Below, piece after piece: positions 3,029 to 56,367 of a stretch of 64,000 nucleotides of DNA (positions are counted from its first letter, which is position 1; the number at the start of each line of letters is the position of its first letter). Both the position numbers and the translations under genes were made by a program. The notes beneath the pieces are model-generated. The model searched no databases, was not told the DNA's origin, and saw only the letters and a list, made by a program, of their open reading frames with translations. Source of the stretch: a virus (lineage: Duplodnaviria > Heunggongvirae > Uroviricota > Caudoviricetes); IMG/VR virus record IMGVR_UViG_2721755651_000007, one strand, 5' to 3'.

Positions 3029-3149
3029 CGGATTCTCCGGTGACAGCAGGTGTCAGTTGTTCAGGCTGACTGCGCGAATTGTAAGGCAATACGCCGGAAT
3101 GTACAAACAGAAAACCCGTCAGTAAGACGGGCTTAACAAGCAGGGGCGG

Positions 3150-3494
3150 TTACTTTAATAATTTCAGTGCCTTTACATCAACTTCAACACTGCTCAGGTC
3201 TTTATCAATTTCACCCTCAATTCTTACTTTGTCTTTCGGAGAAACATTCTGCCCGGCCCATACGCTGTCATCAATATCCGTGACAATTGTCCCGCTATTG
3301 TCACGAAACTCATAACGTTCATCACCCACTTTTTTAACGATGCTCCCTTCAAGGATAACCCATGCATCATCCTTCAGTTCTTTTGCCTGCGCTACTGTTG
3401 AACGCTCTGCTTCTGGCCCCTGGAAACCACCCTGCTGTGCAAAAGCGCCAAAAGACACACCGGAAATAAGTGCTGCAATCAATACCTTTTTCAT
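3150..3494 (-). CDS. YgiW/YdeI-family periplasmic OB-fold (BOF) protein, prophage cargo
   Basis: Signal peptide MKKVLIAALISGVSFGAFA; QGGFQGP...V.L.G.I.......F.D.SG.I.V.ID pattern typical of YgiW family. Confidence 0.7.
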   Translation of the reverse strand: MKKVLIAALISGVSFGAFAQQGGFQGPEAERSTVAQAKELKDDAWVILEGSIVKKVGDERYEFRDNSGTIVTDIDDSVWAGQNVSPKDKVRIEGEIDKDLSSVEVDVKALKLLK

Positions 3495-3613: not shown

Positions 3614-3769
3614 TTACTTCTCAGATTCGTAGTCTACGAAGACAGCGACCTCCGTCTGACCGGTTCGGATTCGCACCTCGCAGAGGTCTTTCCTCGTTAC
3701 CAGTGCCGTCACTATGACGGTTAAACAGATGACGATCAGGGCGATTAACATCGCCTTTTGCTGCTTCAT
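3614..3769 (-). CDS. hok: Hok-family type I toxin (HokD/RelF-like), with overlapping mok frame extending to 3826
   Basis: MKQQKAMLIALIVICLTVIVTALVTRKDLCEVRIRTGQTEVAVF matches Hok/Gef family; longer overlapping ORF 3614..3826 = mok-like. Confidence 0.9.
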   Translation of the reverse strand: MKQQKAMLIALIVICLTVIVTALVTRKDLCEVRIRTGQTEVAVFVDYESEK

Positions 3770-4059
3770 AGCCTGCTTCTCCTTGCCTTTCGGCACGTAA
3801 GAGGCTAACCTACATGTGTTCAGCATGGATTGAGCCTCAGATTAATGTTAAGCGTCTTGCAGGACGCGTAATGTTAACTGGGGCTTTTCTCTATCTGCCG
3901 TTGGTGTTCATGCCCGAGGCAGATAGCCTCAAGCACCCGCAGCAATTCTACTTAACTATCCTTTTCCCGCAAACCGTTTTTATCCCCAGCGGCAAATCGA
4001 ATACACCACCAGCGCCACCGCCATCGCAATTCCTACCGTTGTGAATGCTTCAGGCCAGG

Positions 4060-5598: not shown

Positions 5599-6489
5599 TC
5601 AGGCTGCCAGATCATCGTTTCCGATGGAAGCATAATAAGCTTTTTCTGCTTCTGCCGGAGGAGTATGGCCCAGCCTTCCCAGCAATCGTCGATTGTTATA
5701 CCAGTCCACCCACGTTAGTGTGGCCAGTTCCACTTCTGCACGGTTTTTCCAGCTCTTACGGTGTATTACCTCCGCTTTGTAAAGACCATTGATGCTCTCA
5801 GCCATCGCGTTGTCATACGAGTCGCCTGTACTCCCTGTTGATGCCAGTAATCCGGCTTCTTTTAGTCGCTCCGTATAGGCCAGTGACACATACTGAGAGC
5901 CTTTATCGCTGTGATGGATGGTGCCAGACGGACGACGGGCCCACAACGCCTGCTCCAGCGCATCCAGCACGAATGTCGTTTCCATAGACGATGAGACCCG
6001 CCACCCCACGATGTATCCGGCAAACACATCAATGATAAACGCCACATAGACGAAGCCCTGCCATGTGCTGACGTAAGTAAAATCAGCCACCCACAGCTGG
6101 TCAGGTCGTTCTGCCACGAACTGACGGTTTACGCGGTCGCCTGCGGCAACGGCTTTCCGGCTGATGGTCGTACGGACCTTTTTACCCCGGAGAACACCGG
6201 CAAGTCCCATAACCGCCATGAGACGTGCCACTGTACATCTGGCCACCCTGATTCCTTCCCGTAACAACTGACGCCAGACTTTACGCACACCGTACACCTG
6301 ATGATTTTCATCGTATACGCGCTGTATCTCTCTCTTCAGCCAGTCGTCGTGCTGCGCACGGGCACTGCGTTTATCCGGATGATGTCGCTGTTGCTGACAA
6401 TGGTAATACGTTGACGGGGCAATATGCAGTTCGCTGCATACCGGTCCGACCCCGTACTGCTCACGCAGCTTATCCAGCAGTGGCATCAT
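5599..6489 (-). CDS. IS3-family transposase OrfB (DDE integrase domain)
   Basis: 296 aa; WVADFTYV...HSDKGSQY...YDNAMAES motifs. Confidence 0.9.
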
Positions 6490-6812
6490 TTTTTCCAGAG
6501 GCGGTCGAACTCCGCCTTCGCAAAATAAGCGGAAGCCTGGCGAAGGATATCGTTACTGCGGCGCAGTTCACGATTTTCACGTTCCAGCTCTTTCAGACGC
6601 TGACGTTCAGCGCTGGTGAGCCCACCATCACCGCCCCCGGTATCCCGCTCATGCTGGCGAACCCAGACACGCAGAGTCTCCGGCGTACAGCCAATCTTTG
6701 GGGCAATGGAACAAATTGCCGCCCACTGTGAGTCATATTCATCCTGACTTTCCAGAACCATACGAATCGCCCGCTGACGGACTTCGGGGGAAAAACGAGT
6801 ATTTTTAGTCAT
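6486..6812 (-). CDS. IS3-family transposase OrfA (HTH)
   Basis: 108 aa; overlaps orfB as expected for -1 frameshift fusion. Confidence 0.9.
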
Positions 6813-7119: not shown

Positions 7120-7854
7120 TCACCGCTGCTGTTCTCTGGTGGCGGTAATATCCCGGAGAATATCCCGGCACTTGTTCAGCTCCCGCAGCGCGGCGCAGAC
7201 TCGCTCCCACTTCTGAACCTGACCTTTTGCCCGGCGCAGCTCGCGGTTAGCCACATGCAGCGATGGTAAAATCAGACCATCCGGATGCTTTCTGGTGAAC
7301 GACGGCTGTGACTGCACTGTGACCGCCACACTTTCCGTTTTTATTTCTTCCTGTGTTTCCGCTTCCCCGACTGGTAACGCAACACCTGCTGGCTGAGGAA
7401 AGGCTTTACCATCCGTTTCCGTTATGGATGCGGCTTTCGGCTCTGCCGGTAAATCAGCGCCCGGTATGCAGTACCGAAATTTACCGCCCTGATTCACGCG
7501 AATCAGACGCCCTTTGCTGATTGCCATGGCCAGTGATGAATTCGCCCGGCGGGAGGTAATCCCGAACATCAGTGCCAGCTCATCCGCCGTTTGTGGGCCA
7601 TGATGTTCAATCGCCTCAGTCAGCATTTGCGCTGTCACTTTCGGTACCGGTGACACTGGTTCACTTTCACCAGTCTGAGTCAGCCACCACATCGACCCCT
7701 TGTTATCCGCTTCACCACGGCGCTTCAGTTTCCACAGTTCGTTGACAGCATCTTCGCGGCTGATTCCAAGGCGCGATGCCACTACCTGTGAAGAGGCTTT
7801 TTTCAGTGCTTTCAGTGCGTCAAATACGGTTTCCATTAATATTTCCTCCGACAA
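7120..7854 (-). CDS. conserved prophage hypothetical protein downstream of P (DUF1627-like by recollection)
   Basis: 244 aa; paralog 54105..54686. Confidence 0.45.
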
Positions 7855-7869
7855 AATCGTTTCTCAGAT

Positions 7870-8532
7870 TCAAATAAAACCAGCTGCCTTCCGGCGTTCG
7901 TATTCCTGTTTCAGCCGTTCAATTGGCGTTGGCCCTTGCGGGTGTTTCGCCCCTTCCAGTTGTCGTCGCACTGGCGGAACACTCATCCCGTTACCAACAT
8001 GCTTTGCCCATTTCGTCAGTTGCCGTTCCGCAAGTCGTTTTAACTCACCTTGCGTCATCTGGCGCTCAATCCCTCTGGTACGCATTTCGAGGCAGATGTG
8101 GTACAGCACAGGCTGTGGCCACGGGTATTTATCACTCCCGTCGTATCGCCAGGATTCATTGCGCCAGCGCCGGTACTCTTCCATCACGGCATCCACCGTA
8201 AGACCAAATGGATTTGCCCCACTCTCCGAAATCAGCGCAACAAACTCAGCCAGGTCCGGGGGCCACGTTTCACCCGCCCGGCAGCGGTCCATGCACTGAC
8301 GGCACACCAGACGGATTTGCTGTTCAGTCATCGCACCAATCTGGGCAATCCAGAGCTTCGAAGGTGCGGCCCCGTTCTTCTGAGTCCAGCGGTTCGAATA
8401 CACCTCCCCCATGAGCTCCCACAGCTTCCAGGCCGTTTCCGTTGCTGATAAATCCGTTGTCACGTTCCCACTGTTCGCGTGCAGCCCGGATTTCCTGAAC
8501 TGCCCGTGATGCCGTGCCACCTGATGCTGCAT
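7870..8532 (-). CDS. replication protein P-like (helicase loader)
   Basis: Resembles lambda P incl. YPW..Y/H....LEMR region; N-terminal ~200 nt overlap O frame, start uncertain. Confidence 0.55.
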   Translation of the reverse strand: MQHQVARHHGQFRKSGLHANSGNVTTDLSATETAWKLWELMGEVYSNRWTQKNGAAPSKLWIAQIGAMTEQQIRLVCRQCMDRCRAGETWPPDLAEFVALISESGANPFGLTVDAVMEEYRRWRNESWRYDGSDKYPWPQPVLYHICLEMRTRGIERQMTQGELKRLAERQLTKWAKHVGNGMSVPPVRRQLEGAKHPQGPTPIERLKQEYERRKAAGFI

Positions 8533-9373
8533 GGCTTCCCCCCTTGCTGACTGGTTTTACCTGTGCCCTGACGTGCTGCACGTGGCGGGCAAATTTCTGC
8601 TCCCACTGAACCTGCGTGAAAACCTTCCCCTCCGCCATCCAGTAATCCCGGAATGCGGCAAGCTCAGCAGGTGTAAATTCCGGCTCAGGCAGAGCCATAC
8701 CCCACACTGCTGCCCGTTGTCGAAAATCCGGCGACGGCTGCCAGACAGTAGTCATCGAAAATTTCCCGATCGGTTCGCTCAGGCCGTCCAGGTATTCAGG
8801 TTCGGCTGTCTGCAACGGCGCACCATTCGACTCACTGGTCGGAATACTCTCGCGCGCGTTATGTGTGGGGTTTAATTCTGTATCTGTATCTTTATCTGTA
8901 TCTTTATCTGTCGTGACTTGTCGTGACAGATGCGTGACACGTCGTGACTCATCGTGACAATCAGCATTATGTTTCCGCAGCTTTTCCCGCTCCCGCTGCG
9001 CTCTCTTGCGCTCTGCCGGGGATTTTGCCGTTTGCGAAACGTTACCATTGTCCTCTTTCAGCACCTGACGTTTTTCCCATCCGGAAATAAGGTCACCATC
9101 CAGAACCCGCCCCTGCATTGCATGCAAAATTGAATCAATTACGTCTTCCGTCACATCAAGCGCACTTGCTAAATCTTCCGTCGTGACATCAATGTGACCA
9201 CGTAGTGACACGCCGTGACATGTCGTGACATTTCGTGACGCGCTCACCAGAAGATGGATATACACTGCCATCACTGTTGCGATTGGCTGTCCTGATACCC
9301 TGGCAATCGTTCGCCACTTGGGGTCATTTGGCATGTCATGCCACAATCTGAGCCAGGCATTAGCCATACTCAC
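8324..9373 (-). CDS. replication initiator O-like protein containing origin iterons
   Basis: 349 aa; internal TDKDTDKDTD encoded by DNA repeats; position upstream of P. Confidence 0.6.
   Translation of the reverse strand: MSMANAWLRLWHDMPNDPKWRTIARVSGQPIATVMAVYIHLLVSASRNVTTCHGVSLRGHIDVTTEDLASALDVTEDVIDSILHAMQGRVLDGDLISGWEKRQVLKEDNGNVSQTAKSPAERKRAQREREKLRKHNADCHDESRRVTHLSRQVTTDKDTDKDTDTELNPTHNARESIPTSESNGAPLQTAEPEYLDGLSEPIGKFSMTTVWQPSPDFRQRAAVWGMALPEPEFTPAELAAFRDYWMAEGKVFTQVQWEQKFARHVQHVRAQVKPVSKGGSHAASGGTASRAVQEIRAAREQWERDNGFISNGNGLEAVGAHGGGVFEPLDSEERGRTFEALDCPDWCDD
8881..8960. repeat. iteron-like direct repeats (candidate ori), cluster 1
   Basis: TCTGTATCTTTA repeats then five GTGAC-containing units phased at ~10 bp. 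Confidence 0.6.
9181..9240. repeat. iteron-like direct repeats, cluster 2
   Basis: Six GTGAC-containing units at ~10-bp spacing inside O-like gene. Confidence 0.55.
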
Positions 9374-9435
9374 CTCTTCTGATACCGAACTTTACCCTCG
9401 AACATCCGGAAGAAATCCGGCATGAATATTGTTGG

Positions 9436-54686: not shown

Positions 54687-54872
54687 ACGCCAGGTGTATA
54701 CGCTTTTATCAACGAAGCCAGCCTTTTTCAGTTCCCACAGCTCGTTCAGTACTTCTTCACGACTGATATCAAGTCGCGCAGCCAGCTATACCGACGTGGC
54801 TTTTCCCATCGCTTTCAGTGCGTCAAAAACAGTCTCCATAAATTTCCTCCCGGTAAAAAATCACTTCTCAAC

Positions 54873-55538
54873 TCAAACAAAACCAGCCGCTTTCCGGCGT
54901 TCATATTCCTGTTTCAGCAACTCAATTGGCGTTGGCCCCGACGGGCGTTTGGGGGCCGCCAGTTGTCGCCGGACTGGCGGAACGCTCAGGCCGTTACTAA
55001 CATGCTTTGCCCATTTCGTCAGTTGCCGTTCTGCAAGCCGTTTTAATTCCCCTTCGGTCATCTGGCGCTCAATCCCCTTTGAACGCATCTCGAGGCAAAT
55101 GTGATACAGCACAGGCTGAGACCACGGGTACTTATCACTTCCGTCGTATCGCCAGGACTCATTGCGCCAGCGGCGGTACTCCTCCATCACAGCATCCACC
55201 GTCAGACCGAATGGATTGGCTCCGCTTTTCGAAATCAGTGCCACAAACTCAGCCAGGTCCGGAGGCCATGTTTCACCCGCCCGGCAGCGGTCCATGCACT
55301 GGCGGCAGACCTGCCGGATTTGCTGCTCAGTCATCGCGCCAATCTGTGCAATCCAGAGCTTCGAAGGTGCGGCCCCGTTCTTCTGGATCCAGCGGTTCGA
55401 ATAAACCACCCCCATGAGTTCCCACAGCTTCCAGGCCGTTTCCGTCGCTGATAAATCCGTTTTCACGTTCCCACTGCTCACGTGCTGCCCGAATTTCCTG
55501 AACTGCCCGTGATGCGGTGCCACCTGGTGCTGCTGCAT
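54873..55538 (-). CDS. replication protein P-like
   Basis: 221 aa paralog of 7870..8532. Confidence 0.55.
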   Translation of the reverse strand: MQQHQVAPHHGQFRKFGQHVSSGNVKTDLSATETAWKLWELMGVVYSNRWIQKNGAAPSKLWIAQIGAMTEQQIRQVCRQCMDRCRAGETWPPDLAEFVALISKSGANPFGLTVDAVMEEYRRWRNESWRYDGSDKYPWSQPVLYHICLEMRSKGIERQMTEGELKRLAERQLTKWAKHVSNGLSVPPVRRQLAAPKRPSGPTPIELLKQEYERRKAAGFV

Positions 55539-56367
55539 GGTTTACCCCTTTGCTGACTGGTTTAACCTGCGCCCTGACGTGATTTACGTGACGGGCGAAT
55601 TTCTGCTCCCACTGAATCTGCGTAAACACTTTCCCCTCCGCTGCCCAGTAGTCCCGGAAGGCGGCAAGTTCAGCAGGTGTAAATTCTGTCTCCGGCAAAG
55701 CCATCCCCCACAACGCAGCCCGTCGTCGAAAATCCCGTGACGGATACCAGCTATCGCTCATCGGGAATTTTCCGATGGGTTCGCTCAGGCCATACAGGAA
55801 TACAGGGGGGGCTGCCTGTAACGACAAAACTTCCTGCTCACTGGTCGGAGCACTCTCGCGTGCGTTATGTGTGGGGTTTAGATCTTTGGGTTCCTTTGGG
55901 TTCCGTGATCCGTTTTTGGGTGTCTTTGATGGAAAATTTGGGTGTCTTTGGTTATTTTCCATGCAGCTAAGAGTTCTGTTTTTGGGTCTGTTTTGTGCTG
56001 AAACATAACCATTTTCGGTACTGTTTTTATTAACAGCACCAATTTTACCCACCTTTAAAGACTCCCGTTTTTGGGTGTATTCAGGCTCGGCAACACTTTC
56101 TTCTACACCGATAAGTCGGTACACCACAATTTGCTTTGTTCTGCCTTTTCTCTCACCGGTATCAACAATTAACCCAATCTCCATCAGGTGTCGTAAGCTG
56201 TCCTGCACAGTCTTTTTGTTCAGTTCCGTTACTTCTGCCAGTGCAGATACAGACGGGTATGCACACAAATCGGCACCGCACATATCAGCAAGCCAGGTCA
56301 ATACTGACTTACTGGATGAACTGCCGGTTTTCACCTTTTTAGCCCATCGTAGTGCATCGATACTCAT
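55327..56367 (-). CDS. replication initiator O-like protein, N-terminal domain distinct from prophage A
   Basis: C-terminal half near-identical to 8324..9373 product, N-terminal HTH region different; contains TTTGGGT-type repeats. Confidence 0.6.
   Translation of the reverse strand: MSIDALRWAKKVKTGSSSSKSVLTWLADMCGADLCAYPSVSALAEVTELNKKTVQDSLRHLMEIGLIVDTGERKGRTKQIVVYRLIGVEESVAEPEYTQKRESLKVGKIGAVNKNSTENGYVSAQNRPKNRTLSCMENNQRHPNFPSKTPKNGSRNPKEPKDLNPTHNARESAPTSEQEVLSLQAAPPVFLYGLSEPIGKFPMSDSWYPSRDFRRRAALWGMALPETEFTPAELAAFRDYWAAEGKVFTQIQWEQKFARHVNHVRAQVKPVSKGVNHAAAPGGTASRAVQEIRAAREQWERENGFISDGNGLEAVGTHGGGLFEPLDPEERGRTFEALDCTDWRDD
55878..55995. repeat. iteron-like direct repeats (candidate ori) inside O-like gene
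   Basis: Repeated CTTTGGGTTCC / TTTGGGTGTCTTTG units. Confidence 0.5.

Follow-up and report, generated by a model that had tools for sequence, protein, structure and literature searches.

It is a textbook principle that a replication origin can lie within the coding sequence for its initiator and that its specificity module can be swapped. In lambda and the Stx phages, the origin (ori) sits in the central part of the O gene and comprises iterons and an AT-rich region, and Stx-phage O proteins have two extra iterons and 13 extra residues (PMC7466680). The gp38 protein of SPP1 binds direct repeats of oriL inside gene 38, beside an AT-rich DNA unwinding element (DUE) (PMC6316719). Similarly, the Rep protein of pSK41 binds Rep boxes located centrally within rep (PMC5703833). 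Here, we analyzed a 64,000-nucleotide (nt) stretch of DNA from a virus of the Caudoviricetes (IMG/VR record IMGVR_UViG_2721755651_000007; "the window" means this whole stretch), which carries two neighboring O157:H7 prophages, termed A and B. Two arrays of GTGAC repeats and an AT-rich tract in the O-like initiator gene of prophage A probably constitute the replication origin of this prophage, embedded in its own initiator gene. This conclusion, which comes from sequence comparison, would extend the known kind.

Two phased repeat arrays in the initiator gene

The gene and its repeats are located as follows (window coordinates; aa, amino acids).

8324-9367, minus strand: prophage A gene for the O-like initiator, with 347 aa counted from the ATG (RefSeq, identical O157:H7 locus)
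8911-8958, minus strand: gene-distal iteron array, 5 units (GTGAC on the plus strand at 8913, 8923, 8934, 8944 and 8954)
9181-9240, minus strand: gene-proximal iteron array, 6 units (GTGAC on the plus strand at 9183, 9194, 9205, 9215, 9225 and 9235)
9150-9154, plus strand: inverted single core copy, GTGAC on the coding strand in codons D-V-T of ALDVTE, 33 bp from the proximal array

The initial annotation had described two clusters of five to six GTGAC units, spaced by about 10 bp, inside the O open reading frame (ORF). Coordinates and counts agree with this description, as does Tandem Repeats Finder, which reports a period of 10 at both arrays. Consecutive units are separated by 10, 11, 10 and 10 bp in the distal array and by 11, 11, 10, 10 and 10 bp in the proximal array, and the arrays themselves lie about 260 bp apart. 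GTGAC is indeed present in every unit, but the conserved core is longer than this pentamer, namely the hexamer GTCACG on the coding strand. The window contains 72 GTGAC and 70 GTCAC in total, and 11 of the GTGAC, all on one strand, fall in the two arrays. No other 60-bp stretch in the 64-kb window has at least three copies of GTGAC or GTCAC. According to a Poisson estimate made by hand, about 0.37 copies would be expected per 330 bp, and the probability of finding at least 11 is about 3e-13.

For comparison, we used 49 homologous loci from one-genome-per-species contigs, cited below by their L numbers where needed. Taking all repeat classes together, 134 unit spacings measured 10 bp and 36 measured 11 bp. 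Since 10-11 bp corresponds to one helical turn, the sites are expected on one face of the DNA. An inverted GTGAC is found at the equivalent offset (192) of the coding sequence (CDS) in most homologous loci, and the Val codon of the inverted copy is GTG in 18/18 homologues with Val at this column. Palindromic core forms (GTAACGTTAC and GTCACGTGAC) were seen in relatives. The retention of the inverted copy, together with the palindromic forms, argues that duplex DNA rather than RNA is recognized.

In the ORF list, the O-like reading frame extends from 8324 to 9373, reaching upstream to a GTG at 9373. RefSeq names the product of 8324-9367 "DnaT-like ssDNA-binding domain-containing protein" (ssDNA, single-stranded DNA). 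The window is chromosomal DNA of E. coli O157:H7. A 1050-bp query of the region was 100% identical to many O157:H7 genomes, with copies at a query coverage of at least 80% in 658 of 5426 complete E. coli genomes.

Selection on the DNA word

A period of 10-11 bp is not a multiple of 3, so GTCACG falls in all three reading frames, where it is translated as S-R (TCA CGn), V-T (GTC ACn) or G/C/R-H (nGT CAC). The peptides SRNVT..RGHxDVT and CHDESRxVT, seemingly invariant in protein alignments, are these translated repeats. In about 25 of the 49 loci, GTCAC recurs at matching positions of the CDS (offsets 128/138/148/159 and about 386-417). These loci come from Escherichia, Shigella, Rahnella, Serratia, Superficieibacter, Scandinavium, Pseudomonas, Gilvimarinus, Entomomonas (34% GC), Bordetella, Acidovorax, Aquitalea, Chromobacterium, Castellaniella and Pseudothauera (69% GC). 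Outside the gene, the homologous loci contain few GTCAC or GTGAC copies.

Shuffling of synonymous codons in 22 genes yielded 1.3-3.8 copies, versus 6-11 observed, and the observed count was attained by 0-2 of 1000 shuffles in each gene. In the codon alignment, the share of the commonest codon at conserved residues outside the repeats was mostly 0.28-0.81. The few residues with nearly a single codon outside the repeats include D15 (GAC, 20/21) and the flanking A47 (GCG, 19/21) and N50 (AAT, 18/19). Codon usage at the repeat-encoded residues was as follows.

Proximal motif, Ser: TCA, 20/21
Proximal motif, Val: GTC, 21/21
Proximal motif, Thr: ACG, 21/21
Proximal motif, Gly: GGT, 21/21
Proximal motif, His: CAC, 20/20
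Proximal motif, second Val: GTC, 21/21
Distal array, His: CAC, 18/18
Distal array, Ser: TCA, 20/20
Distal array, Val: GTC, 20/20

At the motif, the Ser codon TCA is retained even in GC-rich hosts. Mere recent common descent does not account for the fixed motif codons, because flanking conserved residues vary in codon. The initial annotation had named repeats driven by coding only, along with absent binding and a true origin elsewhere, as the outcome that would speak against its interpretation. The first of these was not found, as the shuffles fall short and synonymous positions of the motif are nearly fixed from 34 to 69% GC. By these comparisons, the repeats are under selection at the DNA level and not merely coding-driven.

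An AT-rich tract beside the distal array

8870-8911, unstranded: AT-rich tract with purine/pyrimidine asymmetry, whose coding strand reads (AGATAA/AGATAC)n and encodes TDKDTDKDTDTE; candidate unwinding element

TDKD-coding repeats had been noted ahead of the GTGAC clusters, and Tandem Repeats Finder locates them in the ORF as a 6/12-bp repeat (TCTGTA / TCTTTATCTGTA) at 8877-8911, encoding TDKDTDKDTD. A search for an AT-rich unwinding element near the repeats, which the initial annotation had suggested, leads to this TDKD-coding tract itself. It abuts the distal array, and its positions 8870-8909 are the least stable 40-mer in 7800-10200, less stable even than the DNA between repressor and cro. 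In the whole window, they rank at the 99.3rd percentile of instability.

Stability was also profiled in 37 homologues, covering all iteron classes. In most of them, the least stable 30-mer of the CDS starts 5-27 nt past the last distal iteron and, across the 6.4-kb locus, ranks among the least stable 0.5%. A least-stable AT-rich tract adjoins the distal array in about 30 homologues. Its sequence is (C)AGATAAAGATAAAGA or AGATAAGAGAAGA, also at 60-69% GC. All three frames are represented (27, 4 and 4 loci), with DKDKD, RLDKRR or QIREEEI as the encoded peptides. Conservation in three frames with different peptides argues that the AT-rich tract is a DNA feature.

In L010, L016, L021 and L036, the purine tract past the distal array ends in AAAGATCT, whereas the window copy has no GATC there. 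On the opposite strand, AAAGATCT resembles the E. coli oriC 13-mer consensus, GATCTnTTnTTTT. No DnaA-box-like sites (at most one mismatch) were found near the arrays of prophage A, and the only GATC is at 8768.

The initiator protein

8963-9367, minus strand: N-terminal winged-helix domain and basic helix, aa 1-135, proposed to bind the iterons (AlphaFold model)
8561-8761, minus strand: DnaT-like ssDNA-binding domain in the C-terminal half, aa 205-271 (349-aa numbering; Pfam PF17948)

The AlphaFold model has, in this order, three helices, a low-confidence loop, a helix-turn-helix (HTH) with a beta wing and then a basic helix (aa 117-134), which is followed by a disordered linker and a DnaT-type domain. 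The proximal array encodes the loop between helix 3 and the HTH (SRNVTTCHGVSLRGHIDVT), where the predicted local distance difference test (pLDDT) score is 56-69. The distal array encodes CHDESRRVTHLSRQVT within the interdomain linker, which is predicted to be disordered and is specified by this array together with the AT tract.

The fold of the N-terminal domain (N-domain) resembles the N-terminal domain of DnaD and the RepA_N initiator of pSK41, although the match is moderate and the mean pLDDT of the model is 72. Searches of Pfam and NCBIfam with the N-domain returned no significant family, and the domain was placed by PHROGs alone. The O-like protein matches the "replication initiation protein" families 15931/1408/3729 of PHROGs, with weak links (4e-6 to 2e-3) to PHROG replisome-organizer families. 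Pfam PF09681 (Phage_rep_org_N) matched the homologue of phage Evi below the cut-off (expectation value (E) 0.12, 12.8 bits versus 23.3) and left the window N-domain unmatched. In all, 1052 relatives of the N-domain were detectable, some of which are named "phage replisome organizer" by NCBI.

The label "O-like" in the initial annotation is supported by comparison as far as the initiator role is concerned, but not as regards the type of N-domain. Even with E allowed up to 10, Phage_rep_O (PF04492) gave no match to the window protein. A lambda-O-type N-domain was considered and rejected, given this missing match, a fold like those of the DnaD N-terminal domain and RepA_N, and the NCBI naming of the relatives. 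The C-terminal domain was clear, with a PF17948 match at E 2.9e-17 (62.6 bits versus a cut-off of 25) and Foldseek hits to 4ou6/6aeq at E 2e-5 and a template-modeling (TM) score (target) of 0.84-0.89.

Prophage B and a proposed exchangeable cassette

55327-56367, minus strand: O-like gene of prophage B, with a different N-domain (HTH_36 / weak Phage_rep_O type) and the same DnaT-like C-terminal half
7808-8874 and 54811-55880, unstranded: block common to prophages A and B (blastn, 85.5% DNA identity)

Prophage B had been reported to have an O protein with TTTGGGT repeats, a different N-terminal domain and the same C-terminal/P region, and both the protein alignments and the word counts agree. 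The C-terminal 212 residues of the two O-like proteins are 72% identical and the N-terminal parts are unrelated, the prophage B protein showing a faint Phage_rep_O match (E 0.26). The P proteins are 89% identical. Six of the nine TTTGGGT copies in the window are within 55885-56076, the linker-coding part of the prophage B gene. These repeats are themselves a candidate origin. They are irregularly spaced (10, 20, 22, 44 and 89 bp), and the DNA that separates and follows them is T-rich.

The DNA homology of the two prophages breaks off at a distance of 3 nt from the AT tract of A and of 5 nt from the first TTTGGGT of B, and its end at 8874 marks the module junction. As it stops at the repeat edges, the exchanged unit is exactly the N-domain together with the repeats, which lends support at the sequence level to the earlier suggestion of a swapped specificity with a shared helicase-loader interface.

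The N-domain and repeats also occur with unrelated C-terminal halves, in phages Evi and Tritos (5 + 4 units). Relative to Evi and Tritos, the proximal array of the window has two additional units, which amount to an in-frame indel of 21 bp or 7 aa. P. aeruginosa P0108 has the N-domain with its repeats as a stand-alone protein of about 160 aa, and in Pseudomonas Detrevirus phages it is located upstream of a 1830-bp gene annotated "replication protein P". Conversely, YdaU of Rac-SA53 combines the same C-terminal half with another N-domain and has no GTGAC arrays.

Other repeat classes among homologues

Distant homologues (43-55% identity) have other words, phased at 10 bp, in the same two places. 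ACG is the core common to all of them.

CGAACGC class: L031, L032, L034, L035, L037, L040, L043, L047 and L048
GTAACG class: L023, L026 and L038
TAACGC class: L036 and L039

Strict co-variation of iteron class with N-domain phylogeny was considered and is supported only in part (identity 0.70 within class versus 0.65 between classes).

Array geometry varies further. In L025 (Erwinia), the core is packed at a 5-bp period at 3141-3185 and 3411-3455 (GTCACGTCACGTCACGTGAC), and in L028 (Pseudomonas), three direct core copies are followed by three inverted ones (3136-3210). These geometries could inform how the protein oligomerizes on DNA.

L030, L033 and L041 have one or two AACG-type remnants only, with an AT tract that is retained or even expanded and that has eight AGATAA units in L041. 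Either the sites in these three loci are very degenerate or initiation is different. In L042 (3004-4194, Serratia) and L051 (3001-4305, Pantoea), the N-domain is kept without GTCACG-type arrays and is joined to a different, longer C-terminal part. Words similar to CTACGTAG are abundant past the N-domain in both, and may represent another repeat class.

The proposed origin and alternative explanations

The comparisons show that the hexamer is conserved at the DNA level and phased, that a least-stable tract adjoins it, that the N-domain and the repeats are inherited together, and that a module junction exists. From these findings, and by analogy, we infer binding, unwinding and firing at the arrays. 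The N-terminal winged-helix domain would bind the GTCACG hexamers of both arrays and the inverted copy, all on one face of the DNA. The bound protein would oligomerize and bend or wrap the DNA into an O-some-like complex, which would melt the adjoining (AGATAA)n tract. The DnaT-like half would hold the single strand and recruit the lambda-P-like protein together with the host DnaB that it carries. Origin specificity would be set by one exchangeable cassette of N-domain and iterons, and the C-terminal half and P would form a common helicase-loading back end, also used by prophage B.

Several observations weigh against an origin at this place. The proximal array sits inside the coding region of the DNA-binding domain itself. 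A DNA-reading helix is not usually acidic, yet the predicted second HTH helix (TEDVIDSILHAM) is. Iteron classes follow the N-domain tree only loosely (0.70 and 0.65 identity, as above), and users of GTAACG and GTCACG can be close relatives (L023, L025 and L026), so that the third base of the word may go unread. The low-GC loci L030, L033 and L041 (Entomomonas / Ventosimonas, about 34% GC) are without clear arrays, with the AT tract retained. An insertion sequence (IS) element lies 1.5 kb downstream in the window, and this copy of prophage A may be defective and perhaps never fires. Finally, a literature search found no paper on the origin, binding or initiation of this family, with coverage that was incomplete, so that an earlier description may exist.

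Some of these points would be explained if the iteron-encoded peptides (SRNVTRGH and CHDESRNVT in the GTCACG class, NATERGRTQ in the GAACGC class) helped to read the iterons themselves, an idea to which we give only a small chance. The recognizing protein segment would then change automatically whenever the DNA word did, coupling the specificities of origin and initiator. This could explain both the small difference in the rest of the N-domain between iteron classes and the acidic "recognition" helix.

Among the alternatives, the one that fares best is that the arrays bind protein but do not fire, serving instead in autoregulation, handcuffing, copy control, as a fork barrier like SPP1 oriR, or as sites for some other protein of phage or host, with the true origin elsewhere. 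In its favor, two arrays lie apart and an inverted copy exists, one array is within the coding region of the DNA-binding domain, where the lambda model does not need it, and the SPP1 organizer has a further binding site, presumed to stall forks (PMC6316719). We nevertheless regard this explanation as unlikely. In most homologues, the least stable AT-rich tract follows the distal array by 5-27 nt, the classic arrangement of iterons plus DUE. The arrays also travel with the N-domain whatever the neighboring genes or C-terminal domains. Moreover, no other GTGAC/GTCAC cluster exists in the window, and copies outside the gene are few in homologous loci.

Selection at synonymous sites alone cannot tell DNA from RNA, and every direct copy is on the coding strand. 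The conserved words could then act in the mRNA, as a phased array for an RNA-binding protein or in translational control of the initiator gene. This is very improbable, however, as the inverted copy (GTG in 18/18) and the palindromic variants would read differently in RNA, the spacing of 10-11 nt is that of the DNA helical repeat, and the adjoining AT tract is a feature of duplex stability. In addition, an Rfam scan of 8300-9400 gave no match.

Slimmer still is the chance that the repeats are mainly substrates of recombination or slippage at a module junction, without a role in initiation. The A/B homology breakpoint at the edge of the repeat region and the 21-bp (two-unit) indel between the window and Evi/Tritos fit this explanation, but slippage would not hold the exact hexamer, its phasing and its position across Gamma- and Betaproteobacteria. 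A junction at the origin edge is also expected if the cassette reading holds, because N-domain and origin must then be inherited together. Least credible is a coding-driven peptide motif that is periodic in DNA by coincidence and has no DNA-level function: the repeat-encoded residues (S-R, V-T and G/C-H) are invariant across the protein family, but one DNA word with a period of 10-11 bp is used in three frames, synonymous shuffles never or almost never attain the observed counts, third codon positions of the motif hardly vary between 34 and 69% GC, and the arrays map to a low-confidence loop and a disordered linker.

The intragenic arrays would thus provide a candidate origin for a very common prophage initiator family (more than 1000 proteins) that is now annotated only as "DnaT-like" or "replisome organizer". 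A DNA signal appears to be written through protein-coding sequence in all three frames, and a seemingly invariant peptide motif would be a by-product of selection on DNA, which calls for caution in protein analyses based on conservation. Two neighboring O157:H7 prophages would share a helicase-loading back end and differ in their origin-specificity cassettes. This difference bears on which prophages can replicate after induction and on which of them interfere with one another or complement one another.

Gene neighborhood

7870-8331, minus strand: lambda-P-like helicase-loader gene (Pfam Phage_lambda_P, PF06992; RefSeq "replication protein P")
10179-10817, plus strand: LexA-like repressor gene, prophage A early-right operon

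The early-right operon of prophage A has a typical lambdoid layout. In addition to the LexA-like repressor gene, it comprises a P22-Cro-like gene, a YdaT-family gene in the CII position, the O-like gene, the lambda-P-like gene and a DUF1627 gene. The lambda-P-like gene overlaps the end of the O-like gene by 8 nt, and its product matches PF06992 at E 1.3e-15 (57.9 bits versus a cut-off of 26). The mechanical P-like ORF (7870-8532) runs 201 nt further upstream than the RefSeq start at 8331, inside the O-like gene in another frame. This extension is kept between prophages A and B because it overlaps the conserved C-terminus of O. A scan for promoters and terminators gave only weak consensus matches at chance level, one of which (8934-8961) is created by the repeats themselves.

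Just downstream of the replication module and the DUF1627 gene, an IS3-family element (5599-6812) has two overlapping transposase ORFs (108 and 296 aa) and an Rfam ALIL frameshift pseudoknot (6415-6531). The insertion suggests that prophage A is rearranged or defective. The immunity-side region of prophage A contains the gene for the small RNA (sRNA) DicF (12461-12512), which is also found in phage Tritos (L002, 5384-5436), a phage with the same N-domain cassette. Matches to sok antitoxin RNA (hok/sok type) at 3764-3938 and 52149-52298 occur once per prophage, at similar distances from the replication modules. Prophage B has a cluster of STnc100 sRNA, AgvB (anti-GcvB) sRNA and two tRNA genes at 46911-47522.

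Comparison with known systems

Like lambda/Stx O, the prophage A system would have its origin inside the initiator gene, with iterons followed by an AT-rich region in the direction of transcription. In both, the iterons code for a tolerant linker and extra iterons add residues, two units corresponding to 7 aa in prophage A. A P-like loader gene follows immediately downstream, as in lambda, and the N-terminal specificity module is exchangeable while the C-terminal part is shared. Unlike lambda O, however, the prophage A protein has an N-domain that is not Pfam Phage_rep_O and a C-terminal half that is a DnaT-like ssDNA-binding domain. The iterons of lambda are about 19 bp long with inverted symmetry, whereas prophage A has 6-bp cores at 10-11 bp, in two arrays, one of which is within the coding region of the DNA-binding domain.

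The likeness to SPP1 G38P and oriL consists in direct repeats within the organizer's own gene and an adjoining AT-rich element, with binding in prophage A being a prediction. It extends to the "phage replisome organizer" naming of relatives by NCBI and the weak PHROG replisome-organizer links. The prophage A system differs from SPP1 in its hosts (Proteobacteria), in a helicase-loading partner that is lambda-P-like instead of G39P, and in the sequence and arrangement of its repeats. Sequence similarity to RepA_N/pSK41 Rep or to DnaD is not detectable. RepA_N proteins belong to Gram-positive plasmids and have a C-terminal domain that binds DnaG primase, in contrast to the DnaT-like half in prophage A.

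The ori and crr of satellite phage P4 consist of short octamer repeats spaced by about one helical turn. They form two clusters at a distance from each other, and the initiator binds both. Prophage A resembles P4 in its short, helical-turn-spaced repeats and its two clusters. The proteins are unrelated, the P4 initiator being the alpha primase-helicase, and the ori and crr clusters are kilobases apart. Judged from the DNA and the predicted proteins, the prophage A system is best read as an intragenic iteron origin of the lambda O / SPP1 G38P / pSK41 Rep kind, which differs from the known cases in the initiator family, the short hexamers at helical-turn spacing, the bipartite layout and the DnaT-like C-terminal half.

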